Positions 3,386 through 17,908 are shown, counted from the stretch's first letter. The stretch: 64,000 bases of DNA from a candidate division FCPU426 bacterium (GCA_963738405.1 CAVTWJ010000009.1:128001-192000); one strand, 5' to 3'. Notes: generated from the sequence alone by a model not told the origin. Numbers and translations: made by a program.

Positions 3386-5074
3386 TTATCTCTTCTTTGA
3401 ATTTTGGGATTTATTTTTCTCGTTAAACAAATCAGATTGCCCGGTTGTAACGGATTTGGAAATTTTGTGATTATTTATGTTTTCTTCGATTTCTTCATTC
3501 TCGTCCTCTACCACCGGCAACTGGCTTACTGCCATGCTATAGTCATCTTTATCCCATTCCGCTTTATCCAAAACAGCTTTTGGGATTTTCTTTAGCGACA
3601 AATTGCCCCATTGGGTTAGGTCTTTTGCTCTCCAAGCACCGCAACAAATCAATAAACTGCGTTTAGAACCCACCTCATCACTAATCTTGACCAATTGTTC
3701 AACTGTTAAAGTTTGTGTCGTCACGTATATAAAGTCATTTTCGGTGGACTGACCGTGTCGCCAAAATTCAGTTTCGCTTGGGGAATAAGTAAAGCCTTCT
3801 AATTTGCAAACGGCTTCGGCTACCAACTCGGGATTGAATGTTGGATTAATAACCTCATTCCCCCAAGAATCCTTTTTAATCAGCGAAGGGGCAAGTCTGT
3901 AATATCTAAATCCACCGCCACCTTTCCAACCAATAGATTCGCTAATACCACCTTGGTCAGTCCCATCAATAACTTTTTTAAGTCGAGGAATGATATGGGT
4001 ATGGCAATGTTCTCCCAGTTCTATCATTATCCAACGACGACCCATTTTGTGCGCTACTGCCCCAGTGGTGCCTGAACCAGCAAATGAATCGAGAACAAAA
4101 TCGCCAGGGTTAGTAGAAATTTGTAAAATTCTTTGAATTAAACGTTCTGGTTTCGGTGTAGCGAAAACAGGCGCTGTTGGTAACAAAGTTGCAATTTCTG
4201 CACTCGCTTCTCTTGTTGTACCTGCATCGTCACCTAACCATATGCTTTCGGGAACTCTTCCGTCTTGATCTTCCAAATATATCTTTCTCAAAATCCTTGA
4301 TTCGCCATCTACAAAAGTGATTTCTCCAGTAGAAACCTTTTCATAAAACGTTTCCTTAGACCAGCGCCAACCTTTATCTGGGGGCGCAATTTTATTCCCG
4401 TTTGGTGTTTCAATGACGTATTTTAAATTTTCCCTAAGATTAGGGCTCCGGACATCACCGCTTCTCCACAAGCCGCGCGGATCACTATCAGGGTTTGAAT
4501 AATTAATGTTATTTTCTTCAGTCCTGGGCAGTTTATTACGAATAAATTTATCTGACTTTTGATAAACCAAAATGTAGTTGTGATGTAATGAAAGTTGTTT
4601 CGCGTCGTTTTTGCCTTGAATACTGTGTTGCCAAGTAATAGAACCGAAAAAATTATCCCTGCCGAACATTTCGTCGCATAGGATTTTTAAATAGTGGCAT
4701 TCATTATCGTCGATAATTATCCAAATACTTCCGTCTGGGCTTAACAAGTTTCTCAGTAATTCCAACCGATCCCGCATTAAACTTAACCAAATGGAATGTT
4801 CTACGCCGTCTTTGTAATGTTCAAATGCACTACCTGTATTGTAAGGTGGGTCAATGCAAACACATTTTATTTTTCCAGCGAACTCGTTTTCCAATGCCTT
4901 TAATCCTAATAGGTTGTCTCCGAAAATTAGTCGATTATCAAATTGATCAACATCTCGTCGAGTTTTAGAGTGAAATGAATTTGCGAAGTCGTGGATAAGA
5001 ACCCGCGGTTCAAACTTCGGCCTGTTATCTTTGCCAATCCAAGTAAGTTCAAGTTTTGTTTTTTGCCCGTTCAT
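3386..5074 (-). CDS. mod: Type III R-M Mod subunit, amino (N6-A) DNA methyltransferase
   Basis: DPPY motif, FATPKPERL, DSFAGSGTTG (beta-class order). Confidence 0.9.
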   Translation of the reverse strand: MNGQKTKLELTWIGKDNRPKFEPRVLIHDFANSFHSKTRRDVDQFDNRLIFGDNLLGLKALENEFAGKIKCVCIDPPYNTGSAFEHYKDGVEHSIWLSLMRDRLELLRNLLSPDGSIWIIIDDNECHYLKILCDEMFGRDNFFGSITWQHSIQGKNDAKQLSLHHNYILVYQKSDKFIRNKLPRTEENNINYSNPDSDPRGLWRSGDVRSPNLRENLKYVIETPNGNKIAPPDKGWRWSKETFYEKVSTGEITFVDGESRILRKIYLEDQDGRVPESIWLGDDAGTTREASAEIATLLPTAPVFATPKPERLIQRILQISTNPGDFVLDSFAGSGTTGAVAHKMGRRWIMIELGEHCHTHIIPRLKKVIDGTDQGGISESIGWKGGGGFRYYRLAPSLIKKDSWGNEVINPTFNPELVAEAVCKLEGFTYSPSETEFWRHGQSTENDFIYVTTQTLTVEQLVKISDEVGSKRSLLICCGAWRAKDLTQWGNLSLKKIPKAVLDKAEWDKDDYSMAVSQLPVVEDENEEIEENINNHKISKSVTTGQSDLFNEKNKSQNSKKR

Positions 5075-5117
5075 TTTCGATCCATTTTCGTAGATGTATT
5101 TCTAACGCTTAGTAAAC

Positions 5118-8003
5118 TTATTGAATTGTCCACCGAACGGTGAATAATTCACTTGTCTTCATTTGTCTTCCCATTCTCTCCTGAAGTTCTTGAACTAAAG
5201 ATTGGTGCTTCTCGTCCAATTCATCCTGGGCGGCAAAGATCTGAACTCGTTTTCTCTTCAATTGAACTTGTAACTCCGCGATTTTTTGTTGAATCTCAAC
5301 TTTTTCAGCTAGACTCGGCACTCGTAGGCTTTGTCGGCGGGCTTCTTTGATTTCGCGTTCAATGGAAGTCAACTCGAAATCCAGGCCTTGTTTTTGATCT
5401 TCGTGCCAAAGCTCCAGCTTGTCTAATTCGGTTTCAAAGTAGTTACGATTTCTTTCCTCCATCTGACTTAACAAAATACCGCGTTGATTTTCAGTTTGAG
5501 TTATCAGAATATCTGGGCAAGAGAGATTACATTGAGTCGAACTTAGAACATTAAGTCCTAACAAACGGCGACATTGGTCAGTATCTAACGGTTGGCCATC
5601 TTCTGTGATGCCAGCCCAAATTAAGTATTCCTCAAGTTGCAATGTATGTACTGCAACTTTAGAAAGACTTAACCAGCCAGATTTACCTAGCAAAGTTTGA
5701 ATAGCGGCTATATTTAAACGGGAACCGGTTAAATCAAGGGTTATATCTGCTGAAGGTAATTTACGAAGTTCCCATTGGTCCAATAAACGCTGGGCAAGAG
5801 GATGACCGACTCTAAAAAGGTAAGTATCTTCGACATTACGCCCTGTTCGATAAGGCCCCTCGGGTATTTCCTCACCAACGAATGGATTTTCTTTAAGAAA
5901 AAAATATTTACCTTCTGGTCCTTCTTTAAACTCTGCAAAATCACGTAATGACCAAGCAGCTAAATCCCAAAGCCAACGACTATAACGATCACGGCCTGCA
6001 ATAGCTAAATCGTCACTAAGACGCAATTTTTCTTGAACTTCGACATCGAAATTCTCTAATAATTGTTGGCGTGTTTGATCCAAACGTTCTTGAATGGGAA
6101 TTTCTAATTCCGTTCGTAGTTGTTCAAAGCTTTTGTCGATCTGTTCAGGTGTTCGACAGTGTTGATAAATATCAGCGATTCTTTTTTCGAAGTCTACGCC
6201 GCTTTCTAATGTACTTAGTACTTGGTCACTCGCGCCAAAAACACCTTCGAAAAGCTTGAACTTTTCGTCTAAAAGCTCAAATACGCGTCTATCGACTTCA
6301 TTATCGAGATTTACAAAATTAACCACTACGACGTCATGCTTTTGGCCATAACGATGACAGCGGCCAATTCTTTGTTCTATGCGTTGGGGATTCCATGGCA
6401 GGTCGTAATTAACGACTAAGTTACAAAATTGGAGGTTGATACCTTCTGCGGCTGCCTCTGTCGCAATCATAATCTGGCCATCTTCTCGGAAATAATCGAC
6501 TAAAGCTTGGCGTGTATCCGCTGTTTTTGAGCCACTGATACGAGAAGTGTTAGCATGTTTGGAAAGCCAAGCTTGATACAAAGCTTTTGCTTGGGGGCCG
6601 TTGTTACTGCCGTTGAAAAGTAATATTTTCCCATGCCATTGGCTTTTTTCGAGTAAACCCAATAGGTATTCTTGGGTTCTGGTAGATTCGGTAAAGATAA
6701 CTGCCTTTTCTGGTGCTCCCAACTCTCTTGCTTTATCAAAACCCTTCGCTAAAGCGGTCAATAAAGCTTCGCCTTTAGAATTACTGTTTATGCTTTCCGC
6801 AAGGGCCTGGAATTCACGTAATCGAGCTATTTCTAGGCGCATTTTTCGTTTTTCTTCTTCTGTGTAGACACGAACTGGTTTTGCTTCGCCGTCTTCTGTT
6901 TCCTGTTCCTCATCATCATCCACCCATTCATCTGGTTGGGCTTCACCGCCTTCATAACCTGGCGTGACCGCTTCGATGTCAAGTTCGGGTGGTGCTGGGG
7001 CAGAAGCTTGTTCTTCAAGTTTTTCCGCCAAATGGTGAAGTGTGCCGGAAATAGCAAAACTCGAGCTTGCTAATAGTTTTCGAACAATCATGGTCATCAG
7101 GGCTCGCTGACTTTTTGGCAAAGCAAAGAGCGTATCTTCTTGCAAGTAATCGGATATTAAATCATATAGTTCTTGTTCCTCTGGTTTAGGATGAAACCCT
7201 TCAGTTATAGACAAGCGGTTCGTATAACGAACGTATTCCAAAACCTGGCGTCTAAGTGTTCGTTGGCAAAGAGGTTTAAGTCTTTCCTTTAAAAGACGAA
7301 AAGAAGAGCCTTGAGTTAAGTTGGAAAATTGGGCTTTAAAAGCTTCTAAAGATCCAAACGCATGGTCGTCAACCAAGCTCACCAGCCCATAAAGTTCTAA
7401 TAGGGAATTTTGTAGTGGCGTAGCAGTTAGAAGGATTTTTGGGTGTTGTGCCAATGCTTCTTTGATTATGTTGGCGATTTTCGCAGTGGGTTTATATACA
7501 TTTCGCAAACGATGGGCTTCGTCAATTACTACCAAATCCCAAGAAGTCCCTTTTACGTAGGACGCTTTAGCTTTTGCGAAATGTAGGGAAGTAATAACCA
7601 CTCGATCTGTTTGGTCAAACGGATTAAAGCGCCCCTTTTCAGTTTCGATATTAAAAGTGGCTTTTTCTAATATAAGAGACTTTAAAAAAAACTTTTGTTC
7701 AAGTTCTTCCGCCCATTGTTTTCGAAGGCTAGCGGGGCAAATAACAAGGAGTCTTCGTTTGCGTTCAGCCCATTTTTGTGAAAGAAGGATGCCTGCTTCA
7801 ATGGTTTTTCCTAAACCCACTTCATCAGCGAGGATAGCCCCGCGAGAAAAAGGTGAACGGAAAGCAAAAAGAGCGGCTTCTACTTGATGGGGATTTAAAT
7901 CGACCTGGGCTTCGGACAAGGTTGCGGCTAATTTATCCATGCTGTCGCTAGGACATTTACGTGTAAGTTCGCTGGCAAGGTATTTAGCGTAGTAGTCGTT
8001 CAT
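5118..8003 (-). CDS. SNF2-family helicase with C-terminal coiled coil
   Basis: LADEVGLGKT, DEAH, LTATP, EGINLQ, YDLPWNP, QRIGRCHRYGQ. Confidence 0.9.
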   Translation of the reverse strand: MNDYYAKYLASELTRKCPSDSMDKLAATLSEAQVDLNPHQVEAALFAFRSPFSRGAILADEVGLGKTIEAGILLSQKWAERKRRLLVICPASLRKQWAEELEQKFFLKSLILEKATFNIETEKGRFNPFDQTDRVVITSLHFAKAKASYVKGTSWDLVVIDEAHRLRNVYKPTAKIANIIKEALAQHPKILLTATPLQNSLLELYGLVSLVDDHAFGSLEAFKAQFSNLTQGSSFRLLKERLKPLCQRTLRRQVLEYVRYTNRLSITEGFHPKPEEQELYDLISDYLQEDTLFALPKSQRALMTMIVRKLLASSSFAISGTLHHLAEKLEEQASAPAPPELDIEAVTPGYEGGEAQPDEWVDDDEEQETEDGEAKPVRVYTEEEKRKMRLEIARLREFQALAESINSNSKGEALLTALAKGFDKARELGAPEKAVIFTESTRTQEYLLGLLEKSQWHGKILLFNGSNNGPQAKALYQAWLSKHANTSRISGSKTADTRQALVDYFREDGQIMIATEAAAEGINLQFCNLVVNYDLPWNPQRIEQRIGRCHRYGQKHDVVVVNFVNLDNEVDRRVFELLDEKFKLFEGVFGASDQVLSTLESGVDFEKRIADIYQHCRTPEQIDKSFEQLRTELEIPIQERLDQTRQQLLENFDVEVQEKLRLSDDLAIAGRDRYSRWLWDLAAWSLRDFAEFKEGPEGKYFFLKENPFVGEEIPEGPYRTGRNVEDTYLFRVGHPLAQRLLDQWELRKLPSADITLDLTGSRLNIAAIQTLLGKSGWLSLSKVAVHTLQLEEYLIWAGITEDGQPLDTDQCRRLLGLNVLSSTQCNLSCPDILITQTENQRGILLSQMEERNRNYFETELDKLELWHEDQKQGLDFELTSIEREIKEARRQSLRVPSLAEKVEIQQKIAELQVQLKRKRVQIFAAQDELDEKHQSLVQELQERMGRQMKTSELFTVRWTIQ

Positions 8004-8218: not shown

Positions 8219-8701
8219 TTATGCGAGAAGTCCGGCTTGGCGGAAGGAAAAGTGGCCTTCGTGAGTTACAATCAGGTGGTCATGAACCGTTAGCCCCATG
8301 GCCCTTGCAGCGGTGACGATTTGGCGGGTTAATTGCCTATCTCCTTCGGAAGCTTCAAGGCTTCCCCCTGGGTGGTTGTGAGAAAGAAGCAACCCTGAGG
8401 CGTTAAGCTCTAAAGCTTTCTTCAAGACTTCCCTGGGATAGACGGCGGTATGGTCAACGGTTCCATCTCCCATGAGTACGCAATCCAAAACATGGTTTCT
8501 GTGGTCAACGTACATGACTAAAAAGGACTCGTTGGCCTTCCCGCCTATGAAATTCCGGAAATATTCCGCCGCATCCGCAGGACCCGAAAGACATGGCCCC
8601 CTTTTGTAATCTGCCCTGGCTTCAGCCCAGCTCACCGGGGGAACCGTAGGGGGAACCTTGAACATTACGTCTAATTTCATCTCCAACTGTTTCTTTCTCA
8701 T
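8219..8701 (-). CDS. radC: RadC-like JAB/MPN domain protein (short mobile-element type)
   Basis: VYPREV...SHNHPGG...SEGD...HDHLI. Confidence 0.9.
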   Translation of the reverse strand: MRKKQLEMKLDVMFKVPPTVPPVSWAEARADYKRGPCLSGPADAAEYFRNFIGGKANESFLVMYVDHRNHVLDCVLMGDGTVDHTAVYPREVLKKALELNASGLLLSHNHPGGSLEASEGDRQLTRQIVTAARAMGLTVHDHLIVTHEGHFSFRQAGLLA

Positions 8702-9095
8702 GTGCCCTGCTCCTTAGTTTGTTAGAGGAGAGAGCACCCTCCGGGTGCGCCCCCTCACAAACGCTTGGGGGCGCAAACGGAGCGATAAGAGGAGTTCGCT
8801 TATGGAAAACCGAATCCGGGGGGAAGTGCGTTGTTCGCTTTTAGCATTATTGGGGGAAACGTCAGGCCATCTGTGCGGACGGAATTACCGAGGAACGAGG
8901 TCCGGCCGGCCTGGCGTTTAGGCGCTGTCCGACCCCAACGGCGAAGCCGCCCCCGGTTCGGTTTTCGACAGGATTTACGTTGCTGGGGGTTCCGGGGTGA
9001 TATTCCAACCGGACTAGGGATGGGAATAGGGAAGGGTCGTTTTCCTTTCCTTGGGGGGCCGGGGGAAACGCCACCCGGACAATTGAAGTTGACGA

Positions 9096-9124
9096 TAGAA
9101 ATCTAAAGAATACTTTTGTATAAT
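9096..9124 (+). promoter_or_regulatory. Sigma70-type promoter for the micro-peptide array, probably leaderless transcript
   Basis: TAGAAA (9096-9101), N17, perfect TATAAT (9119-9124); ATG begins at 9131 after 6 intervening nt. Confidence 0.55.
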
Positions 9125-9130
9125 CGTCGT

Positions 9131-9220
9131 ATGAATCATTTTAAAATGAATTTAAATATGGGCCCAAATCCACCTTCTCCTCCACCAGATGATGATGGTA
9201 TAGGAACTAGAGGTAAGTAA
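9131..9220 (+). CDS. Micro-peptide 1 (29 aa) MNHFKMNLNMGPNPPSPPPDDDGIGTRGK
   Basis: Translated by hand; shares the PxPPxD[DE]DG motif with its neighbours; TAA abuts the next ATG. Confidence 0.6.
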   Translation: MNHFKMNLNMGPNPPSPPPDDDGIGTRGK

Positions 9221-9361
9221 ATGAATAATATTGATGACCCGAAAATTCCAGAGGCGGAAAATAATGATGAACGTTCTGAAACCGTATCAAAATCGGAAGT
9301 GTCTGTTCCAGATCCGCCGGTAGATGAAGATGGAACAATTTGGAATTCCAAAGATGAATGA
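9221..9361 (+). CDS. Micro-peptide 2 (46 aa) MNNIDDPKIPEAENNDERSETVSKSEVSVPDPPVDEDGTIWNSKDE
   Basis: GAGGT SD-like sequence upstream; same motif; stop overlaps next start. Confidence 0.6.
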   Translation: MNNIDDPKIPEAENNDERSETVSKSEVSVPDPPVDEDGTIWNSKDE

Positions 9362-9455
9362 TTTCCAAGAAGATCCTAAACCAGAACCAATTCCAGCGCC
9401 TGTTCCCGAACCGCCAGAGGATGAGGATGGAACTATGCAGGAATCCGAGAGATGA
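9354..9455 (+). CDS. Micro-peptide 3 (33 aa) MNDFQEDPKPEPIPAPVPEPPEDEDGTMQESER
   Basis: 8-nt overlap with peptide 2; same motif; ATGA overlap with peptide 4. Confidence 0.6.
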   Translation: MNDFQEDPKPEPIPAPVPEPPEDEDGTMQESER

Positions 9456-9592
9456 GTTTATTTGAACGGGACCCTAATTTAATTCTCCCGCCTGAACCAC
9501 CGCCTGATGATGATGGGATTCTAGGCGCAAGCCCTATTCAACTTCCAGATCCACCTCCAGATGAAGACGGATATTTCGAAAAGAGCTTATAA
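9452..9592 (+). CDS. Micro-peptide 4 (46 aa) MSLFERDPNLILPPEPPPDDDGILGASPIQLPDPPPDEDGYFEKSL, two motif copies
   Basis: ATGA coupling; motif occurs twice. Confidence 0.6.
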   Translation: MSLFERDPNLILPPEPPPDDDGILGASPIQLPDPPPDEDGYFEKSL

Positions 9593-10111
9593 CAAGCTGA
9601 AAATTAAACTAATCGTCAAAGATATAATTAGCCCTACCAAACTTGAATACGCTGATAAATTTATTAACATCAGTTTAGCATCGTTACTTTGAATGCTTTG
9701 TTTGATTCTATCCTGGTGATAAAAAGTTATATAACCCAACATGACTTTCAGGGAATTTTCGTTACCTTCTAGTGTTGTTTTTTCTAACCACATACTCGGA
9801 TTGCTTCCTAAGGACCCATATTTATAGCTATGTAAAGAGACAACAATGAGAATCAAACTTAAAACAAAAAATGGTATTAACGATACTAGAAAATAAAACA
9901 AGTTCGGATGAGTGGTTTTAACAACGAATGAGGCGGAAATTTCACCAATTAAAAGAGTCAAGTAACCGTTGAATAAAATAAAGGCTTTCTGCTCTATTTG
10001 TTTTTTTGTTTCGATAACATCGGTTAGTTTTTTTTCCGCCTGATTTAAAGCTTCTCTAACAATACTCATGTTTATATGTTTTAAGTTTTTGATAGCTTCT
10101 TTGGTTAACAC
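9587..10111 (-). CDS. Three-TM membrane protein of unknown function
   Basis: GTG after GGGGGAGG SD; N-terminal helix, two TM, soluble loop, C-terminal TM. Confidence 0.75.
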   Translation of the reverse strand: MLTKEAIKNLKHINMSIVREALNQAEKKLTDVIETKKQIEQKAFILFNGYLTLLIGEISASFVVKTTHPNLFYFLVSLIPFFVLSLILIVVSLHSYKYGSLGSNPSMWLEKTTLEGNENSLKVMLGYITFYHQDRIKQSIQSNDAKLMLINLSAYSSLVGLIISLTISLIFSLL

Positions 10112-10175
10112 GACCTCCCCCTGAACAAGGTCACTAAATGTTTAGGGTTATGAAGTTTGGTAGAGTTCAACTTGC

Positions 10176-10820
10176 TCATTTATCAGCACCATGGGCAAGT
10201 TTTTTTAACGCGACTGATAGATCAATTACTTTGTTGTTCACTTTTTTTAAATCGCCAATCAAATGATGAAAATCTTTATATTGGCGTTGAATGATTTGTG
10301 GTGATAGTCCTGGCGATTTGGATCTTTTGTGTTCAAACCAGACTCTGAATTTTGCTTGCCATTCAGTTAGATGTGGTCGTAAGGTGTCATTCAAAAGGGA
10401 AATTAATACTTTTAGTAGTTTTTTTGCATCACCATCATCCGAAAGTTCTTCCACTGGGATAGTAACAATTAGCTCTCTGATTTTTTTAAATAGCTCATAC
10501 CAGGAATTGTAAACTTCAACTATCAAATCATGTTTTTCATCAAATGGTAATGCGGCCTTTCTTGTAACAATTTCTGCCCAAGCTACATGAGCAATTCTGG
10601 AAACTTCCGAGGTTCGTTTAAGTTTAATTTTTGAAGTCCCCAAAGGAACTTCAATCTCTTCAATTTTCCAATGCGAATTACGGTTTAAAAAAAAGTATTT
10701 AATAATCCACATAAGGAAAATTGTTCCCGTGATTAGAAATATCAACGAATTATTTAAATGAAATTTGAATCCATCACTCAGTGTGTAGGAAATGTAAACC
10801 AAATCATCATTAGTATTCAT
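10176..10820 (-). CDS. Hypothetical protein, one N-terminal TM plus helical domain
   Basis: Hydrophobic segment near residues 25-45; ATGA overlap with the Nmad2-like gene. Confidence 0.75.
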   Translation of the reverse strand: MNTNDDLVYISYTLSDGFKFHLNNSLIFLITGTIFLMWIIKYFFLNRNSHWKIEEIEVPLGTSKIKLKRTSEVSRIAHVAWAEIVTRKAALPFDEKHDLIVEVYNSWYELFKKIRELIVTIPVEELSDDGDAKKLLKVLISLLNDTLRPHLTEWQAKFRVWFEHKRSKSPGLSPQIIQRQYKDFHHLIGDLKKVNNKVIDLSVALKKLAHGADK

Positions 10821-11461
10821 TTTATTTCCGAAATGGGAAAAACTTTAGCATTTTTGAACTCTAATGGCATTCCTTTAAAGCCCCATCCGTAACTCACGTC
10901 TATCCATTTGATTATACTCTCTAAGAGTTTTGATGAAGGTTTTCGGTGACCCCTGGCTGAACAACAAATATCTTCTTTTGAAGGACCAAACATTCTAAAA
11001 CGTTTCAAGATTTTAGGGGCGTTCTCGCCGAAATAGACGAATTTATTTGAAACTAAAACACGATTAACGTTAGTGTCGTGCGTAATGTTTTTTCTGTTCG
11101 GTTTCCCTTTCTCTTTACTATGGTGCGAATCTACTTGATGCCATCGATCATTTCTAAAAAAATAAATGTTATCACCATACAGTTGTTTTAAACTCCCATT
11201 TAATTTAGGTCTTTTTGAAAAAAATCTAGGATCACGCCAGTAAGTATTGAAATCAAAAGCTTCTGTGACTTGCATTAAATAAATAATCTTCCCTGCGAAC
11301 CCATACCTGGATTTTGCGCCTGTTCCAATAATCCAATCTCCAATTTGAGCACGTGCTCTTATTTGTGGTTTGCAGGTCGCAAGCGTACACCATCCATAAA
11401 AAGGATTAGGAGCAAATCCATAATCACGGGCAACAATGTAAGAAAAAATATTTAAGGGCAT
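10817..11461 (-). CDS. Nmad2-like (nucleotide modification associated domain 2) protein
   Basis: SYIVARDYGFAPNPFYGWCTLATCKPQIR, GDWIIG, YGDNIY; likely start MPLNIF. Confidence 0.75.
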   Translation of the reverse strand: MPLNIFSYIVARDYGFAPNPFYGWCTLATCKPQIRARAQIGDWIIGTGAKSRYGFAGKIIYLMQVTEAFDFNTYWRDPRFFSKRPKLNGSLKQLYGDNIYFFRNDRWHQVDSHHSKEKGKPNRKNITHDTNVNRVLVSNKFVYFGENAPKILKRFRMFGPSKEDICCSARGHRKPSSKLLESIIKWIDVSYGWGFKGMPLEFKNAKVFPISEIK

Positions 11462-11937
11462 GTGTATCTCTTGATTTGCCATTCAGGATTTCTGTCATTC
11501 CCAGATGCTGGATCTTCCCACTTTTGAGAATTTGTGGAATTTAAAGCATCAACAATCTGTTGACTTTGCCAACCAACAATTGCTGAATCGCCTAACTTTT
11601 GTAGCATATCCGGAATATTTGCTTCAGTTGCACCCTGAGCATAAACACCAATAACTCGTTTACCTTGAGAGATGGCATATTCAATTTCCCAATTAACCCA
11701 CCAGCTAGTATGTGTGTCCTTATCAATTAGAACAACTAGAGCACTAGCCCAATCAATTCTTGGGGCTAATATATTAGTTTTGATGTATTCAGGGTCTTTT
11801 GCTTCGTTAGGTTTTTCGCTATTAATAGAACCATCTCGAACATCCATGCCAGCTTGGCCAATTAAATCTTTAAGCTTAGGTAAAAGCTCGTCATTTTCGT
11901 GTATGTGAGAGATAAATATATTTTTGATATCGGACAT
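11452..11937 (-). CDS. TIR domain protein (ThsB/DUF1863/MTH538-like)
   Basis: IFISH...LVVLI...SWWVNWEIEYA with the catalytic Glu present. Confidence 0.85.
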   Translation of the reverse strand: MSDIKNIFISHIHENDELLPKLKDLIGQAGMDVRDGSINSEKPNEAKDPEYIKTNILAPRIDWASALVVLIDKDTHTSWWVNWEIEYAISQGKRVIGVYAQGATEANIPDMLQKLGDSAIVGWQSQQIVDALNSTNSQKWEDPASGNDRNPEWQIKRYTCP

Positions 11938-12048
11938 ATTTATTAATTCCGAAATAAAAAGTTATTTGAGATCCGTTTATATATTATGCATTTGTATTAA
12001 TTAATTAGCCACGAACTAAATATTAAAATGTAACAAATAATTAGAGAT

Positions 12049-13056
12049 TCAATGAGTTTTTATTACTTTGTTTGTGCGTTTCAACCAATGGAAAAAAAGG
12101 TTTTTAAATACTCCATTTGTACATTTTAAAATTGTTTTATTTGATAATTCTTGCCAACCTCGCCGTCTTGCCGCCTCAGCTGACAAAATGAATAAAATAT
12201 TTTTGTAAGCGATTGGTGCATTTGGCCAGTAGGTAATAGCCTCGTGTTTTCGCTTAGAAAGTTTCTCGCTAATAAATAGATCAATTTTTCTGCCTAACGC
12301 GAAAAATAAATATTCGGATTGTTTTTTATTAACGGAAATGTTATCTGAATTTCTAGGCGGCTTCCCTTTTTTACAAAAAACTTTATCGGCGAGGTACAAG
12401 TGGAGGCTATCGCTGATTTGATTGTAAGAACCTACTTTAAGTTTTAACCAGCCTGCCAATATTTCTTGAAGATAAGTAAATTGTATAAAATCATAAGGAA
12501 GACCGCGAAAAAGATCATTGCTCCTTAATACTTGCAACCATTCGAGTTTACCGTCTCTAACCTTTAATAAAGAAACAATATTACAAGGAACATCTTCATT
12601 TCTTGGAAGCCCTTTTACTTTAGGAAGGTCTAAATTGGAGTCCCAAATTTCTAAAACAACCTGTCGACTTATTGAATTAGATTTTAATGTTTGATAGGCG
12701 TTCTCGAGTTGATCTAGACCATTTCTTTTTCGGAGTCGAAAACCATATGCTCCGTATAAAGTTTTACCTGAGCCTGCAAAACTAGAAAGTTCTCGGTTCC
12801 AATAAGTTAAAAATTTAGAATCATTTCGGCCATTCATTGTCCAGATGACTTCGGCTAAAGCAAAAGCGATATTCAAAGTGGGTTTTCGAGAAAAAATCCA
12901 TCTTTGACGTGGATCTTCAATTACAAAGCCTGAATGAAGTATTTCCTTTGTTGGGCCAATTCTACTTGGGTGTCTTTGATATTTTTTATTATCATTGAAT
13001 TCGTTAAAGGCTTTTCGCCAAACAATATCAGCGGATTTCCCTTGGAATATTTTCAT
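12049..13056 (-). CDS. Thymidylate synthase-fold pyrimidine (hydroxy)methyltransferase with C-terminal helical extension
   Basis: YGAYGFR, SRQVV, DVPC catalytic Cys, RSNDLFRGLPYD, SLHLY. Confidence 0.85.
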   Translation of the reverse strand: MKIFQGKSADIVWRKAFNEFNDNKKYQRHPSRIGPTKEILHSGFVIEDPRQRWIFSRKPTLNIAFALAEVIWTMNGRNDSKFLTYWNRELSSFAGSGKTLYGAYGFRLRKRNGLDQLENAYQTLKSNSISRQVVLEIWDSNLDLPKVKGLPRNEDVPCNIVSLLKVRDGKLEWLQVLRSNDLFRGLPYDFIQFTYLQEILAGWLKLKVGSYNQISDSLHLYLADKVFCKKGKPPRNSDNISVNKKQSEYLFFALGRKIDLFISEKLSKRKHEAITYWPNAPIAYKNILFILSAEAARRRGWQELSNKTILKCTNGVFKNLFFHWLKRTNKVIKTH

Positions 13057-13059
13057 TTA

Positions 13060-14055
13060 TCAAGCACCCTTTAATCCTTTTGAAATTAGATGATTGATTT
13101 TCCATTTAGGTGGATACCAAAAATGGATATTTTCTTTATTCATTTGATAGATCTGTTTAATTCTTTTACGGCCACTAAGTCCTTGGACTTCTGGATGTGC
13201 AACCCGAGAGTATTTATCAACTTCGCAAAATAAATTCTGACAATCAATATTCTTTAAAGGTCTACCCCATAGGGATTTAAAATTGATGTTAAGTCGCTCG
13301 AATTCTTCGTTTTGCACGTCAGTCACATAACGAATGATATCTGACTCGTTGTAATCATTTAAATCTTCAAAGCACTTACGGATACCATCAAGTGCACCTG
13401 GTCCAGGAACGACAAAATCATTTTCATCAAAATTAGTAATACAACTATAGTTAATATCAATCGTGAATTGATAAGCCAAAAAGTTACCAATGGTCGGGTA
13501 ACTTAATAAAATGGAAAATACTTCCTGCATTGATTTTGAGCGAGAAATATTATCAACGACACGCTCCTTCATTAAAAGTTCAATTAGTTTAAGATGATTT
13601 TTGTGTTTCTTAGAATAACCGAAATAACTTTTTCCTGAAGCCATGATATAAGCCCCGGAATATATTTTTTGATCTTCCTTTAGTGCCTTGGACAAAATCT
13701 TTTCATACATTTCGTATTTATAAGATGAAAAGCGAGGTTGTCCCAATTCCTTACAAAACAATTCCCAAGTACTGATTTTGTTAAATAATTTAAAAAGAAT
13801 AATCCTAAAAAAGATTTCTTTTGCATCAACCGGGCCTGAATAAATAACATTTTTAATTAAGTACTGACTAACTCTGTCAGAAGCACGATAGGCGTTAGTG
13901 AATTTATGTTTGGCGATAATTGGGTCGGAGGTCCATGGACTAGGTTCGTTATAAACTTTTTTAAAAAAAATCGACTGTCTTTCAGCCGCAAAAATCCAAT
14001 AAGTGTCAAATACCTTTGTGGGTTTAGGACGACTCTTAGTAGAAAAAGTAATCAT
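13060..14055 (-). CDS. aGPT-Pplase1-like / 5-hmdU DNA kinase helical-domain protein
   Basis: FAAERQ, PWTSDPII...KFTNAYRASDRVSQYLI, FLAYQFTID, PGPGALDG, QNLFCEVDKY. Confidence 0.75.
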   Translation of the reverse strand: MITFSTKSRPKPTKVFDTYWIFAAERQSIFFKKVYNEPSPWTSDPIIAKHKFTNAYRASDRVSQYLIKNVIYSGPVDAKEIFFRIILFKLFNKISTWELFCKELGQPRFSSYKYEMYEKILSKALKEDQKIYSGAYIMASGKSYFGYSKKHKNHLKLIELLMKERVVDNISRSKSMQEVFSILLSYPTIGNFLAYQFTIDINYSCITNFDENDFVVPGPGALDGIRKCFEDLNDYNESDIIRYVTDVQNEEFERLNINFKSLWGRPLKNIDCQNLFCEVDKYSRVAHPEVQGLSGRKRIKQIYQMNKENIHFWYPPKWKINHLISKGLKGA

Positions 14056-14079
14056 TGTTTATGACCTGGAATTTGATGT

Positions 14080-14802
14080 TTACTTGGATGAATTAGTTAT
14101 TTGTTTAGTGAATGGAGTAGCTATCGGTAATGTTATAGAAGGCGTATTAGGCCGAGAAGATTTAGAACTTGTGATCGAATTAACTAATATTTCTGCTAAA
14201 ACTGTAACTGCAAAAACCAGCACGCCGAACCAGAAAAACTTTTTGATAAAATCGATCGTTTCTTCAACTTTAATCAATCGTTTATTTAATGCGGCAGGTG
14301 AAGCAACTTCACCTGCCATTCTCATTACATCTTCACTAGATATTTCCATCTGATCATATTTTTTGCCATCGTATAAATCATTTGTCTTTTGATCTAGCTT
14401 GGAAAACCAGATCAAAAATATTAACTCGCCACGCGTAAGAACAATATCTCCGCTTCCAGCGTTATAGACAGAAAATTTCAGTCTCCCCCTAAATCCTGGA
14501 TCAACGTGAAATCCAGAAACATTAACTAGGCCACGAAACTTTTTGTCGGCTTTGATTGAAATAAAGCCGATCATATCGGCTGGGATGGTTACGATCTCTT
14601 CTGTGAGAAGAAGAGCGAATTGGCCTGGGGGGATAGCAGTTTGCTTACCAATCTCGAGAAATTTCTTAACCTTATCCCCGGAAATATAGACTTCAGGTCC
14701 TAGGGTTAACTCGTATGCACCGCGTTTTATGTTTTTCGAATCAGAGCTACTAATTAGTTTCGGGAGGATTTTTTTAAGACTTTCAGAGCTTAAAAAGGAC
14801 AC
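14080..14802 (-). CDS. dCTP deaminase/dUTPase-fold protein with C-terminal TM helix
   Basis: AYELTLG, IPPGQFALLLTEE, HVDPGFRG; TM FFWFGVLVFAVTVLAEILV; likely GTG start at 14802 after GGAG. Confidence 0.75.
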   Translation of the reverse strand: MSFLSSESLKKILPKLISSSDSKNIKRGAYELTLGPEVYISGDKVKKFLEIGKQTAIPPGQFALLLTEEIVTIPADMIGFISIKADKKFRGLVNVSGFHVDPGFRGRLKFSVYNAGSGDIVLTRGELIFLIWFSKLDQKTNDLYDGKKYDQMEISSEDVMRMAGEVASPAALNKRLIKVEETIDFIKKFFWFGVLVFAVTVLAEILVNSITSSKSSRPNTPSITLPIATPFTKQITNSSK

Positions 14803-14896
14803 TTTGGCTCCCAAGCAATTACGATGAATTAACGCGGCAAGTATAGCAGTTCTTAATATTGGTTAATATGTTGCAGGATTAGGGTTGTATTCGGTT

Positions 14897-15244
14897 TTAT
14901 TGAACCCACAACAGATCTCGATTTCTAATATTATCGAATCCCGTGAAGCTTCCAAATACACCATATTCTCTTTTGCCTCTGGCTTTATGAGCGTAAGAAA
15001 GCCATTTAATCTTTTCTCCAACCTTCAGGGCATAATCAAATCCAATTCGATAAAAGCCGGGTTCCATTCCGCGTGCTAAGTCTGTCCTTATCTCAATATT
15101 TCTGTCGTATCGCATTGAGCATGCAGGGTCGTTGTAATAAATGAAAATGCAATCCATACCATCCATGATTTCGTAATTATGAAAATATTCGTGAGGAAAC
15201 AACATTGGATCAATGGTGGGTAGTGAGGTATTAAAAAAGCCCAT
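14897..15244 (-). CDS. Hypothetical protein, paralog of 15265-15651
   Basis: IFIYY...GMEPGFYRIGFDYA...EYGVFG. Confidence 0.65.
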   Translation of the reverse strand: MGFFNTSLPTIDPMLFPHEYFHNYEIMDGMDCIFIYYNDPACSMRYDRNIEIRTDLARGMEPGFYRIGFDYALKVGEKIKWLSYAHKARGKREYGVFGSFTGFDNIRNRDLLWVQ

Positions 15245-15264
15245 TAAGTGCCTCTGTCAAGAAA

Positions 15265-15651
15265 TTACGCGGACCAGATAATAAGGTGTTTTGGTATTTC
15301 TCTGGGGGCCCTGACCCAAGGATGATTCACTCCCGAAAAAATCCCAAACTCCATTTTATTGTGATCGTGGTAAGCATGCAAAAGCGAATTAGGATCACCA
15401 TTTGATTCAACGGCGTAATCGAAATATGGCAGGTAGAATCCAGGTAACATGCCTAAGCTTAAATTCACTTTGACCTCGATTCTTCGCTTATAGGAAATCT
15501 GACCGAGTGAATCAAAGTCATTACCTTTTCTCGCATAGTCCCGGTAATAAACAAAAATAGTGTCTTCTCCTAAGGGATTTTGGAAACGATTGAAATATCC
15601 AACCGGATTTCCTTTTGGGTGTAACACTAATGAAGTTAGGTTGATTGCCAT
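15265..15651 (-). CDS. Hypothetical protein, paralog of 14897-15244
   Basis: Likely start MAINLT after a G-rich SD; IFVYY...GMLPGFYLPYFDYA...EFGIFS. Confidence 0.65.
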   Translation of the reverse strand: MAINLTSLVLHPKGNPVGYFNRFQNPLGEDTIFVYYRDYARKGNDFDSLGQISYKRRIEVKVNLSLGMLPGFYLPYFDYAVESNGDPNSLLHAYHDHNKMEFGIFSGVNHPWVRAPREIPKHLIIWSA

Positions 15652-15747
15652 TTTTCCCCCCTGGGAACATTCACGAATGAATTTTAAGTTAGCAGGGCAA
15701 AATATACAGCCAAATTTAGTCCAAAGAGTTTGGGACATTGGACCAGG

Positions 15748-15804
15748 TGAAGGGGGTGTGCCGAGGATCGCCGAAGGCAGCCGAGGCCAGGGGGAAGGCT
15801 TTCC
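15748..15804 (+). repeat. Structured intergenic repeat, copy 1
   Basis: TGAAGGGGGTGTGCCGAGGATCGCCGAAGGCAGCCGAGGCCAGGGGGAAGG. Confidence 0.85.
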
Positions 15805-15821
15805 ACCAAGAGACGAGTCTT

Positions 15822-16031
15822 TTAACCGGAACGTCTTCTTTGTCTTGCATGAAGTTTCGCATGTGCGTTTGGGCTCATATTGATGAGATTGTTACGTCTG
15901 AAGTTTTTCGGATTTCCGTCTATATGATGCGTGACTTGATTCCCTTTGGGTTTGGCAACAGTTCTATGAACCAATAACCCGCTATTATTCCAGACAGGAT
16001 ATCCTTTTGGATTGTAATGAAACCTTCCCAT
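15822..16031 (-). CDS. Minimal HNH endonuclease-like protein
   Basis: VHRTVA...HHIDGNPKNFRRNNL...HAKLH; AGGAG SD before MGRFHY. Confidence 0.75.
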   Translation of the reverse strand: MGRFHYNPKGYPVWNNSGLLVHRTVAKPKGNQVTHHIDGNPKNFRRNNLINMSPNAHAKLHARQRRRSG

Positions 16032-16061
16032 GAATTTTCTCCTTTCACCCATGAACTTCGC

Positions 16062-16418
16062 TTACGCACTCAACCTTACATGTAGAAGCCAGACATCGAC
16101 CACCATGTGAAATTCATAATCATCTAAAGGCATTCCATGTCTGAGTTTGGTGGCGATTCGACGGTCAAAATCGGCATGCTCTCCCTTCGCCTCCGGTGAG
16201 GGCTCAACGATCTCGATGGCAAATTTCAACAGATCCCCAGTCAACCGTTCATTGCGAATCAGCTTCCTTTTTATTTGGCCACAGCGCCAGTTTCGGAGTT
16301 TGCGAGCTTCCTCCTTTTCGGGATTCCGAAACGCGCGCATGAAACAATCTTCCATGAACAAATCTTCTGGCCAAACCAATTCGAACGGTTTCTTTGGCTC
16401 ATTTTTCATAGGCTTCAC
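16062..16418 (-). CDS. Hypothetical protein
   Basis: 118-aa ORF co-oriented with neighbours; start uncertain. Confidence 0.55.
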   Translation of the reverse strand: MKPMKNEPKKPFELVWPEDLFMEDCFMRAFRNPEKEEARKLRNWRCGQIKRKLIRNERLTGDLLKFAIEIVEPSPEAKGEHADFDRRIATKLRHGMPLDDYEFHMVVDVWLLHVRLSA

Positions 16419-16540
16419 CTTTCGGGTATTTGAGAATATTTAAACCCTGAGTGGGAGAACAAATAAAAAAATTATGGGTAGAAGTAATCAAAACTGTGCT
16501 GAGTGACACCAAACGGGGTTTTGTTTACATTCCCGTAACA

Positions 16541-16596
16541 TGAAGGGGGAGGTGGGCCGAGGATCACCGAAGGTAGCTGAGGCAAGGGGGAAGACC
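16541..16596 (+). repeat. Structured intergenic repeat, copy 2
   Basis: TGAAGGGGGAGGTGGGCCGAGGATCACCGAAGGTAGCTGAGGCAAGGGGGAAG. Confidence 0.85.
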
Positions 16597-16599
16597 TAT

Positions 16600-16824
16600 T
16601 TACCTTTTTCTTAAGGGGCGATCTCCTCTTCGACGGTCCGCCCATGCGGCCAGGTCCTCAGAAGGGAATCGAAGACATCTGGCTGTGAATTTAACAAACG
16701 GTATTGGATCGGCTTCCCAAGGGGACCTTGAAACCCAATGGTAAAGTGTCCCGGCTTCTACCCCGAGAAAATTAGAAGCCTCTTTGATGTTCAAATATCT
16801 CAAATTGTCCTTCGGATTTTCCAT
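16600..16824 (-). CDS. Excisionase-like HTH DNA-binding protein
   Basis: YLNIKEASNFLGVEAGTLYHWV...IPFVKF...LRF...DLAAW. Confidence 0.8.
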   Translation of the reverse strand: MENPKDNLRYLNIKEASNFLGVEAGTLYHWVSRSPWEADPIPFVKFTARCLRFPSEDLAAWADRRRGDRPLRKR

Positions 16825-16860
16825 TTCATTCCTGATTTAGTGATATATCAGCGTATTGTT

Positions 16861-16911
16861 AGGGTGTGTTGAAATCACCAAAGGCAGCCGAGGACAGGGG
16901 GAAAGCGTTCC
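16861..16911 (+). repeat. Structured intergenic repeat, copy 3 (degenerate)
   Basis: AGGGTGTGTTGAAATCACCAAAGGCAGCCGAGGACAGGGGGAAAG. Confidence 0.75.
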
Positions 16912-16924
16912 CTCCAATTCGCAG

Positions 16925-17908
16925 TTATTTTTCCAATTCGCGTTTAATCTCAGATAGGGAAAGCCGCTTACCTTGCCATTCCCGAATAAGTTTAACCTTT
17001 TCGACAGCCTCTAACGGATACAAGGTGTAACCCGATTCGGTATGGTCCGCCGGTTTCAAGAGCCCTTCTTTGGTCCAATGGCGAATAGTTGCGGTGCTTT
17101 CACGGGTCTTTCGGGCCAGGGCCCCGATCCGAAGCAGGGAAGTAGTATCCTGGGCTTCCTGAGCAGGGCTTTCCCCTTTTGCGGCTTTCAAGTAAATATC
17201 AAGTGACCGATCGATAATCCTGTACATGAGCGCTTCATAGTCTTCGATGCTCCCCCCCAACTGTGCTTTTTCTAACCCGTTTAAATAAGCCAAACGCTCA
17301 CGGGTACGGATGAAGGCCGGGGGATAACCTTTTTGCATTAAAAGCAGGTTCATCAAAAGCCGGGCTGTTCTGCCGTTACCATCGACAAATGGATGGATAC
17401 TCACCAGACGGTAATGCGCTTGAGCCGCCAACTCGGCAGGGTGTAGGTCGGTGGTCGATTTGAGCCAGGATGCGAATTGACTCATGAGTTGGGGAACTTT
17501 TTGGGCATTAGGAAGCACGACCGTGGAACCGGAAATTCTGACCATTAGGGTCCGGTACCTTCCGGCATTGGAATCGTCGATACCCTTAAGAATCATCCCA
17601 TGAAGTTCCAGGATCTCTTTTTCGCCTACAGGGTGCCTTGGACTGGAAACAACCTCTTTTAACCAATCCAAAGCCTTGGCATGGTTGGTGGCTTCCAAGT
17701 GTTCCCGCATCGTCCGGCCACCAACGGTAATCCCTTTTTCCAGGACAATAGCCGTTTCCTGGCGGGTGAGGGTATTGCCCTCAATCGCGTTGCTCGTATA
17801 AGTCAGCTCAACCCGGAACCATTCTTCCAGGTTCAGGATTAATGCGGGTTTAAGCGGACGTAAGGCGTCCAGGCGCTTCTTTTTTGTGTCGAGTTTGTTC
17901 CAGTTCAT
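16925..17908 (-). CDS. Fic-domain protein fused to a C-terminal MerR-type HTH
   Basis: SNAIEGN inhibitory motif, HPFVDGNGRTAR, LRIGALA...TIRHWTKEGLL...SGYTLY. Confidence 0.9.
   Translation of the reverse strand: MNWNKLDTKKKRLDALRPLKPALILNLEEWFRVELTYTSNAIEGNTLTRQETAIVLEKGITVGGRTMREHLEATNHAKALDWLKEVVSSPRHPVGEKEILELHGMILKGIDDSNAGRYRTLMVRISGSTVVLPNAQKVPQLMSQFASWLKSTTDLHPAELAAQAHYRLVSIHPFVDGNGRTARLLMNLLLMQKGYPPAFIRTRERLAYLNGLEKAQLGGSIEDYEALMYRIIDRSLDIYLKAAKGESPAQEAQDTTSLLRIGALARKTRESTATIRHWTKEGLLKPADHTESGYTLYPLEAVEKVKLIREWQGKRLSLSEIKRELEK

Follow-up and report, generated by a model that had tools for sequence, protein, structure and literature searches.

A candidate DS-4-type anti-phage system with a TIR-Nmad2 core and pyrimidine-modification genes in a candidate division FCPU426 bacterium

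Genes of the AT-rich block

The stretch CAVTWJ010000009.1:128001-192000 from the genome of a candidate division FCPU426 bacterium (GCA_963738405.1), 64,000 nt long and hereafter called the window (all positions are counted from its first nucleotide), contains a row of seven co-oriented minus-strand open reading frames (ORFs) at 9587-14814, all recovered by ORF calling, which is faced by four small convergent ORFs on the plus strand at 9131-9592. In gene order the seven encode a dCTP-deaminase/dUTPase-fold protein with a transmembrane (TM) helix (Dcd-TM), a PF18723 protein, an enzyme of the thymidylate synthase (TS) fold, a TIR protein, Nmad2, a four-helix protein with one TM helix (1-TM) and a protein with three (3-TM), at successive distances of 24, 3 and 111 nt, two overlaps, and 64 nt. 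GC content at third codon positions (GC3) is 0.17-0.34 for all seven genes and the peptide ORFs, as against 0.55-0.58 in the Fic and RpoD genes a few kilobases away. An earlier reading made from the sequence alone had described seven co-oriented AT-rich genes that end on a convergent peptide array, with a gap of 111 nt between TS and TIR, and this description holds throughout; it had also proposed that genes and array constitute one composite defence system. We instead regard the six genes at 10176-14814 as a single, horizontally acquired anti-phage system of the DS-4 type, a reading to which we assign a probability of about 0.7. Five of the seven proteins match a Pfam family (the exceptions being those of 214 and 174 amino acids [aa]), only the TIR protein matches a PADLOC model, and PHROG families were recovered for the Dcd-TM, PF18723, TS-fold and TIR proteins and not for Nmad2, 1-TM or 3-TM.

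The TIR protein (11452-11937, minus strand; 161 aa) is of the ThsB type: it matches Pfam ThsB_TIR (2.4e-21) and, over its full length, the PADLOC ThsB model PDLC00418 (6.2e-54), and a profile of its family retrieves 8wcf (1.8e-12), 8fz9 and the ThsB structures 9b7d and 6lhy (1.7e-9). Residues Trp83-Glu84 are invariant among 29 sequences. Nmad2 (Pfam Nmad2, 2.1e-68) is encoded on the same strand by an ORF of 221 aa at 10817-11482, and because the database form of the gene has 214 aa, its start is probably at 11461; this start overlaps the TIR gene, to which Nmad2 is presumably coupled translationally. At E 0.001 or better the protein collection contains 1044 homologues of Nmad2, with about 60% identity across phyla. 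The domain occurs in none of 50,697 phage records, in only 8 IMG/VR contigs and in 17 plasmids, i.e., its distribution is cellular and not that of a phage gene.

The predicted structure of Nmad2 (pLDDT 74) returned no Foldseek match at E 0.001 or better, the best E being 0.015, and the top matches were ASCH, McrB-N and YTH domains. When the model was aligned exhaustively with 48,161 chains, the first 21 rows, with Z scores of 4.5-7.9 over 109-141 residues, were dominated by YTH domains (nine rows), ASCH domains (three rows, including ASC-1 and TRIP4), the N-terminal 5-methylcytosine readers of the McrB type, VcaM4I, THYN1 and the N-terminus of DrmA; the other rows are structural-genomics proteins that we take to be EVE- or ASCH-like. 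For the YTH, ASCH, McrB-N, VcaM4I and THYN1 matches, Z lies at 5.1-7.9. Because this list is so uniform, and although Z scores by themselves are no proof, it points to a fold that resembles the PUA-like readers of modified bases (YTH, ASCH and EVE type).

That TIR and Nmad2 bind each other is supported by structure prediction. The modelled complex reached an ipSAE of 0.85 in three runs, whereas the best of three controls reached 0.01; at least 92% of contacts were common to the runs, and the partner's pLDDT was at least 88. Of 157 solved complexes 116 reach the mark used for such scores, as do 2 of 215 mismatched pairs, and these counts are a rough guide here since our own alignments were used. 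In the model, the C-terminal tail of the TIR protein (residues 148-160) packs against Nmad2 residues that include the invariant Ser112-His113-His114-Ser115.

Three putative pyrimidine-modification genes precede this pair. The TS-fold gene (12049-13056, minus strand; 335 aa) is predicted to encode a pyrimidine-nucleotide hydroxymethylase, with matches to Pfam Thymidylat_synt (2.2e-19) and phrog_5131 (4.4e-57); its best solved relative is MilA, a cytidine monophosphate (CMP) 5-hydroxymethylase (5.2e-28), with ordinary TS at 1e-10. Homologues of the TS-fold enzyme occur in 1374 phage records and those of the PF18723 protein in 470, the closest for both being in the thymidine-hypermodifying PaMx11-type phages, where some of the TS-fold homologues are annotated as deoxyuridylate hydroxymethyltransferase. 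The catalytic Cys158 and an R-S-x-D motif are invariant in the TS-fold alignment. Eight residues past the Asp of this motif lies Asp189 (codon 12490-12492), which corresponds to Asn177 of E. coli TS and to Asp179 of T4 gp42, a position whose residue sets the preference for uracil or cytosine. This position is also Asp in T4 gp42 (23% identical to the window's enzyme in the alignment) and is Asn in PaMx11 gp51 and in nine of nine homologues from related loci, and Asp189 is unique among the 10 aligned bacterial homologues. Because it places the enzyme among the cytosine-type sequences at this site, this copy may hydroxymethylate deoxycytidine monophosphate (dCMP).

The PF18723 (HMUDK_hel) protein (13060-14055, minus strand; 331 aa) matches its family at 2.5e-110 over residues 13-291, and the Pfam search revealed neither a P-loop kinase domain nor any further family, so that the helical domain stands by itself. 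It is homologous to gp50 of phage PaMx11 (BLASTP 1e-21, 23% identity) and not to the kinase gp49, the P-loop enzyme that is listed as a 5-hydroxymethyldeoxyuridine (5-hmdU) DNA kinase (PMC8989533); the gp50 gene comes directly after that of gp49. A homologue from a ViI-type phage is annotated as 'aGPT-Pplase clade 1', which explains why the sequence-only reading had called this gene aGPT-Pplase-like. The same source reports that M6 gp54 and gp51 are enough for the transfer reaction, gp55 being dispensable, and that phage paralogues of PF18723 act on DNA (PMC8989533); M6 gp55 is presumably the PF18723 gene of that phage.

The first gene of the row, that of Dcd-TM (14080-14814, minus strand; 244 aa), matches Pfam DCD (3.9e-12) and ends in a hydrophobic, TM-type helix at about residues 192-217. 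Its score against NCBIfam dCTP_deam (66.9 bits) lies under the cut-off of 92.8, and a Ser occupies the position of the catalytic Glu138 of E. coli Dcd (in the alignment to 1xs1, 'ivlEfyn' versus 'lkfSvyn'). All homologues of Dcd-TM in related loci (L061, L043 and L064, see below) have the C-terminal TM helix, and the three in which the stretch around Glu138 is present have Ser or Ala at that position. Judged from these substitutions, Dcd-TM is less likely to deaminate than to act as a pyrophosphatase or to bind nucleotides.

The last of the six genes encodes the 1-TM protein (10176-10820, minus strand; 214 aa), which belongs to no Pfam family. Its model (pLDDT 91.3) has an N-terminal hairpin, a TM helix at residues 24-47 and a four-helix bundle at 71-210. 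Among its 121 homologues, none with a Pfam domain, Arg87, Ser106, Phe111 and Arg115 are conserved and most members do not have the TM helix. A reading of this protein as a pore-former is not supported, its structural matches being generic helical bundles (ClyA at Z 9.0, MakA/B, YaxB) below the level of about 13 that applies to helical proteins, and a language-model lead to DUF6650, with a score of only 0.77, was likewise set aside.

Related loci and known systems

In a scan that took one genome from each species, Nmad2 had at least 562 relatives, and the best 80 loci were analysed with flanks of up to 10 kb, by tBLASTn of the window's proteins, by clustering of 1201 neighbouring ORFs and by Pfam searches with the cluster representatives. 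These 80 loci (numbered with the prefix L) are the closest to the window's Nmad2 and are mutually related, and the counts drawn from them are descriptive. A TIR gene was present in 78 of the 80, each time as the immediate upstream neighbour of Nmad2. PF18723 was found in 50 loci, TS in 15 and Dcd-TM in three; the 1-TM family was found in eight by tBLASTn and in 20 after clustering. Two further partners are frequent: a protein that joins TIR_2 to a SLOG-cluster-2 domain (TIR-SLOG) lies directly upstream of the TIR gene in 44 loci, and MazG with MazG_C lies directly downstream of Nmad2 in 43. The remainder include a second ThsB-type TIR, proteins of the uracil-DNA glycosylase (UDG) family (14 loci) and radical SAM enzymes (five loci).

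Several of these partners exclude one another. No locus has both the 1-TM family and TIR-SLOG (20 versus 44, with 16 having neither), and the same mutual exclusion holds for TS and MazG-MazG_C (15 versus 43) and for the UDG family and PF18723 (14 versus 50). Conversely, PF18723 accompanies TS in every one of the 15 TS loci, and at least one nucleotide-modifying partner is present in 56 of the 64 loci that extend for at least 5 kb on each side. Where TS is present, PF18723 is often joined by a thymidylate-kinase-like domain, which is fused to it in L002, L034 and L069 and precedes it in L064; no such kinase occurs in the window's block or in the gene set of L061. Clusters of type I restriction-modification (R-M) genes often adjoin, with HsdS-, HsdM- and HsdR-type proteins in 15, 13 and 11 loci.

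Two further arrangements were seen at these loci. A Schlafen/AlbA_2 protein stands with type I R-M genes (HsdM, HsdS, HsdR) beside the TIR-Nmad2 pair in L010, L013, L022, L026, L031, L052 and others. In the TS-type loci L034, L035, L039, L046 and L052 (at about 3700-5400), the fusion of kinase and PF18723 is preceded by two divergent genes, a PIN-like one and one that combines a helix-turn-helix (HTH) with Peptidase_M78 (ImmA/IrrE-like), and this gene pair may be a regulatory switch.

All six families of the window recur together in two loci. L061 has Dcd-TM, TS, PF18723, 1-TM, TIR and Nmad2, and is kinase-less like the window; L064 has 1-TM, TIR, Nmad2, Dcd-TM, the thymidylate-kinase-like (Tmk-like) kinase, PF18723 and TS. 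Because these two loci belong to different lineages, the repetition of the set goes beyond chance, and because they repeat the window's six families, we take the six genes to be one unit. Judged by their arrangement, the modification genes would make up one sub-operon and 1-TM, TIR and Nmad2 another, and since the order of the two varies between genomes, the 111 nt that separate TS from TIR mark a joint within a single system. The sequence-only reading had offered, as the alternative to one composite, that two or three adjacent modules meet at this gap; the gap does not serve as such a border, and yet part of that alternative survives, in that the 3-TM gene and the four peptides, found by tBLASTn in none of the 80 loci, appear to be separate. 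The comparison across genomes that it had proposed as a check therefore upholds a unit for the six genes from Dcd-TM to 1-TM (with L061, L064 and four families of DS-4 in its favour) and not for the 3-TM gene and peptide array, which recur elsewhere as a pair (L093, see below).

DS-4 ('NTTI') is a five-gene anti-phage system of E. coli that was reported by DeWeirdt, Mahoney and Laub (DefensePredictor, Science 2026; PMC13092281). As listed in its Table S8, the genes encode a TS of 361 aa, a deoxynucleoside monophosphate (dNMP) kinase of 185 aa (HHpred match to 1DEK, T4 gp1), a PF18723 protein of 340 aa, a TIR protein of 163 aa and a PF18753 Nmad2 of 220 aa, with the start of Nmad2 overlapping the TIR gene; DefenseFinder assigns this TIR protein to ThsB, and the authors' HHpred search matches it at a probability of 0.99 to 4JEM, a CMP/hydroxymethyl-CMP hydrolase (PMC13092281). 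Against lambda, Table S7 gives a negative log efficiency of plating of 0.93 (about ten-fold) and small plaques. The name DS-4 does not appear in the main text, and the sections examined list the domains of the system without analysing it (PMC13092281).

Compared by family and size, the window contains four of the five DS-4 families (the TS fold, PF18723, the ThsB-annotated TIR and Nmad2), with lengths of 335, 331, 161 and 214 aa against 361, 340, 163 and 220 aa, and in both systems the TIR gene overlaps the start of Nmad2. The differences are that the window has no dNMP or thymidylate-kinase-like P-loop kinase (Pfam searches of the seven proteins), that the order of PF18723 and TS is reversed, that membrane-anchored Dcd-TM and the 1-TM four-helix protein are added, and that Asp189 of the window's TS-fold enzyme stands where the DS-4A sequence, judged by eye, appears to have Asn. 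A blastn search of complete E. coli genomes with the TIR-Nmad2 DNA found nothing.

Likeness to other systems is more limited. The window's TIR shares with Thoeris the ThsB_TIR family and its catalytic Glu, and the TIR-SLOG protein that lies directly upstream of the TIR gene in sister systems recalls a SLOG-sensing effector; however, there is no ThsA (SIR2-SLOG or Macro-TM) among the window's neighbouring genes, and the predicted pairing of TIR with Nmad2 and the nucleotide-modifying enzymes are absent from Thoeris. In the thymidine-hypermodification clusters of phages M6, ViI and PaMx11, as described in PMC8989533, a TS-fold gene adjoins a PF18723 gene as it does here (compare PaMx11 gp51 and gp50), but the window, by Pfam, has neither the P-loop 5-hmdU DNA kinase nor the clade-2 aGPT-Pplase (the amino acid:DNA transferase), and its setting is cellular, with TIR and Nmad2 added. 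The hydroxymethylcytosine (hmC) pathway of T4 (gp56 dCTPase/dUTPase, gp42 dCMP hydroxymethylase and gp1 dNMP kinase) has its likeness in a dUTPase-superfamily protein that lacks the deaminase Glu and in an Asp-type TS-fold enzyme. This likeness is one of residue and fold only; no glucosyltransferases are present, and the role here would be host defence and not protection of a phage.

The domains themselves were reportedly defined in papers by Burroughs in 2015 and by Iyer in 2013. A literature search for 'Nmad2' and 'nucleotide modification associated domain', whose reach did not extend to the domain-defining papers, returned only PMC13092281 as relevant.

Several considerations weigh against a DS-4-type system at this locus. 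The phenotype on record is that of the E. coli DS-4 only, is weak and, in the row of Table S7 for this system, concerns one phage. The copy could be incomplete, as it has no counterpart of the kinase that DS-4 and most TS-type relatives possess, and because a single G/A transition separates the codon of Asp189 from an Asn codon, this residue could be an assembly error. The partner counts are not independent, the 80 loci being those nearest to the window's Nmad2 and interrelated. The fold match of Nmad2 is middling, with nothing from Foldseek at E 0.001 or better and with Z scores below 8, which can reflect a common arrangement; in the four-helix family a TM helix is the exception, and the structures that it matches are generic. 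Finally, hydroxymethyl nucleotides that were made constitutively would mark host DNA too, and a means of avoiding this is not evident.

Mechanism and competing explanations

We read the six-gene block as a variant of the known DS-4, one with a cytosine-type TS residue and a pair of membrane anchors but without the kinase. At its core, a ThsB-type TIR enzyme would form a heterodimer with an Nmad2 that has the fold of a modified-base reader; around this core would lie a pyrimidine-modification module composed of the Dcd-fold protein, the TS-fold hydroxymethylase and PF18723, the companion of phage 5-hmdU DNA kinases, and the membrane-anchored four-helix protein would occupy the place that TIR-SLOG has in the relatives. 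In the chain of steps that we propose, the Dcd-fold protein would supply dCMP or deoxyuridine monophosphate (dUMP), to which the TS-fold enzyme would add a hydroxymethyl group (Asp189 suggests dCMP here, and the Asn of the relatives suggests dUMP). Cellular kinases, or in the relatives a dedicated Tmk-like kinase, would convert the product to a triphosphate, which would enter rapidly replicating and thus mainly phage DNA, and PF18723 would work on the hydroxymethyl base. Nmad2 would then read the modified base or nucleotide and switch on the active site of the TIR protein (Glu84), and infection would be halted by breakdown of NAD+ or by a signal made by TIR. Such an output would go to TIR-SLOG in the sister systems and here, perhaps, to the four-helix membrane protein; a TIR signal to a membrane effector is plausible for the 1-TM family alone, which replaces TIR-SLOG in relatives. 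This chain as a whole, from the product of the Dcd-fold and TS-fold proteins to the TIR output, is tentative, and we would give it well under an even chance.

A stronger form of the same idea, 'mark and sense' immunity, would have the host make a hydroxymethyl pyrimidine at the membrane and place it mainly in phage DNA, where Nmad2 would read it and gate a TIR that breaks down NAD+ or signals, with one TS residue (Asn or Asp) serving as the switch between hydroxymethyluracil (hmU) and hmC. We consider this form unlikely.

The main mechanistic rival, which we also consider unlikely, is that the locus destroys nucleotides by means of a pair like MilA and MilB (the CMP hydroxymethylase and hydroxymethyl-CMP N-glycosidase of mildiomycin synthesis): the Dcd-fold and TS-fold proteins would produce hydroxymethyl dNMPs, a TIR-like N-glycosidase of the MilB type would cleave them and starve the phage, and Nmad2 would be regulatory or bind the substrate. 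Deaminases that deplete dCTP are an established means of defence, and among solved structures none is closer to the TS-fold enzyme than MilA. The HHpred match of the DS-4 TIR to 4JEM, as reported in PMC13092281, also leads to the mildiomycin enzyme pair. The window's TIR does not bear this out: the HMMER profile of its family finds ThsB-type TIRs and, at E values of up to 10, no match to 4JEM (the structure with the MilB/NDT relationship). Moreover, nucleotide destruction leaves no role for PF18723 or for the UDG-family proteins of the sister systems (enzymes of this family excise bases from DNA), and the MilA/MilB pathway belongs to secondary metabolism and contains neither Nmad2 nor PF18723.

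Whether the system extends to a seventh gene depends on the 3-TM gene and the peptides that converge on it. The 3-TM protein (9587-10111, minus strand; 174 aa) is predicted from its TM helices and matches no Pfam family. The four coupled small ORFs (9131-9592, plus strand; 29, 46, 33 and 46 aa) contain five P-P-x-D-[DE]-D-G motifs. The stop codon of each ORF adjoins or overlaps the start codon of the next, and the fourth ORF shares 6 nt with the 3' end of the 3-TM gene. Before them lies a promoter-like site (TAGAAA, 17 nt, TATAAT; 9096-9124, plus strand), which is the best of the region with 10 of 12 consensus matches and is a sequence match only. Because its -10 box ends 6 nt before the ATG of the first peptide, this peptide is possibly translated from a leaderless mRNA. 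Motifs rich in proline, of the kind found here, stall ribosomes in the absence of elongation factor P, and to ascribe a translation-sensing role to the peptides is speculation.

A search of 1.84 billion representatives gave the 3-TM family 233 proteins at E 0.001 or better; the family is highly diverse in alignment, and its ten best members come from metagenome contigs. None of the other 98 genomes of the phylum has the protein, its homologues were found in no plasmids, phages or IMG/VR contigs, and the metagenome scan contained one true relative (39% identity), on the contig L093. There the module spans 279-947, next to a transposase-like ORF, and a convergent ORF of 48 aa with two motifs of the P-P-P-D-x-G-G type extends 6 nt into the 3' end of the 3-TM gene, and the window's last peptide has the same size, place, direction and number of motifs. 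A pair of such motifs within 40 residues occurs in 2 of 35,446 open segments (each 25 aa or longer, from the six-frame translation of 1.64 Mb, with a motif that was defined after both peptides had been seen), and both of these segments converge on a gene of the 3-TM family. BLASTP of the L093 peptide against the window's last peptide is not significant (E 11), the link being one of motif, length, position and orientation, and no homologue of the latter was found among proteins of 25-81 aa. Because the 3-TM gene and peptides occur in none of the 80 loci and recur as a pair in L093, they are best viewed as a separate adjacent module, possibly a new one of two parts that stands apart from the TIR-Nmad2 system.

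The composite that the sequence-only reading had proposed, in which all seven genes and the array act together and the TIR signal has 3-TM as a further membrane effector, is accordingly improbable. It can draw on the common strand, the 64-nt distance between 1-TM and 3-TM and the equally low GC3, and on a language-model search in which the 3-TM protein lies near a cluster with 14% PycTM members (the membrane effector of Pycsar), which is a lead only. Against it, the 3-TM gene and the peptides are missing from all 80 related loci, the 3-TM family has 233 members of its own, and the L093 homologue with its convergent peptide has neither TIR nor Nmad2 beside it, though that contig is just 1659 nt long. 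Nor does Pfam place SLATT or PycTM in the 3-TM protein or among the families listed for 41 of its relatives, which show no consistent family.

Equally improbable, in our estimate, is that the block is an inactive remnant whose kinase was lost and whose TS-fold substitution changed the specificity of the enzyme or damaged it. The kinase fused to or beside PF18723 in four related loci, and present in DS-4, is indeed absent here, and the uniqueness of Asp189 would fit such decay; but all six frames are intact and of lengths typical of their families, the kinase-less set of six occurs in L061 as well, and both Cys158 of the TS-fold enzyme and Glu84 of the TIR protein have been kept. As for a cassette for phage DNA self-modification (a counter-defence of the kind found in M6, ViI and PaMx11) left in a decayed prophage, the numerous phage homologues of PF18723 and the TS-fold enzyme, the closest in PaMx11-type phages, and the low GC of the block make it conceivable, but it is very improbable given the cellular distribution of Nmad2, the lack of PHROG families for Nmad2 and both TM proteins, the absence of phage structural or replication genes from the ORFs and Pfam matches near the block, the missing P-loop 5-hmdU kinase and clade-2 transferase, and the chromosomal type I R-M genes that adjoin the relatives.

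Genomic setting and implications

By their gene content, the surroundings of the block form a defence island. On the minus strand lie a type III restriction gene (671-3382) and its modification partner (3386-5074), which PADLOC recognizes as a type III R-M pair (1.5e-206 and 7.9e-208), followed by genes for a DrmD-like SNF2 helicase (5118-8003; 2.5e-204) and RadC (8219-8701); low GC3 was also observed in the type III R-M genes and the DrmD-like helicase gene. On the far side of the block are genes for an HNH protein, an HTH_17 protein (16600-16824) and a protein that joins a Fic domain to an HTH of the MerR type (16925-17908), the last matching the PADLOC models SoFic and PDC-S04.

Barring short GC-rich matches at its edges, the 6-kb block is absent from all 40 related genomes searched. 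Rfam models found no family at E 0.1 or better in window positions 1-22000, and a tRNA search of positions 1-30000 found none. No RNA data set was listed as containing the block, and one soil DNA run contained 0.11 of its words. A pair of paralogous ORFs (115 and 157 aa) lies at 14897-15738, directly upstream of Dcd-TM, with no Pfam, PADLOC, NCBIfam or PHROG family and with counterparts in none of the 80 related loci. Short GC-rich repeats occur on both sides of the AT-rich block (9000-9081 and 15767-16911), among them a 38-nt element in three copies (at 15767, 16563 and 16874); two related genomes contain sequences 81-87% identical to the stretch 9000-9081, one of these genomes having three such copies. 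These repeats may be elements like the repetitive extragenic palindromic (REP) sequences or hot spots of insertion.

DS-4 is among the few validated defence systems with enzymes that modify DNA bases, and the comparison of loci gives it an anatomy: a near-invariant pair of TIR and Nmad2 that are predicted to bind, in which Nmad2 has a reader-like fold, is combined with interchangeable nucleotide modules (TS with the kinase and PF18723, MazG-MazG_C, UDG, radical SAM) and with interchangeable upstream partners (TIR-SLOG or the four-helix protein). A system that had been left unexplained thereby becomes open to direct experimental tests, for which the window's copy, kinase-less, with two membrane anchors and a cytosine-type TS residue, is a natural variant. 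If a reader does gate the TIR, such systems would join the recognition of modified bases by domains of the YTH/EVE type to TIR immunity; and if 'mark and sense' is true, the TIR-Nmad2 heterodimer would be without precedent among immune sensors in reading a mark that the host itself had put on its invader.

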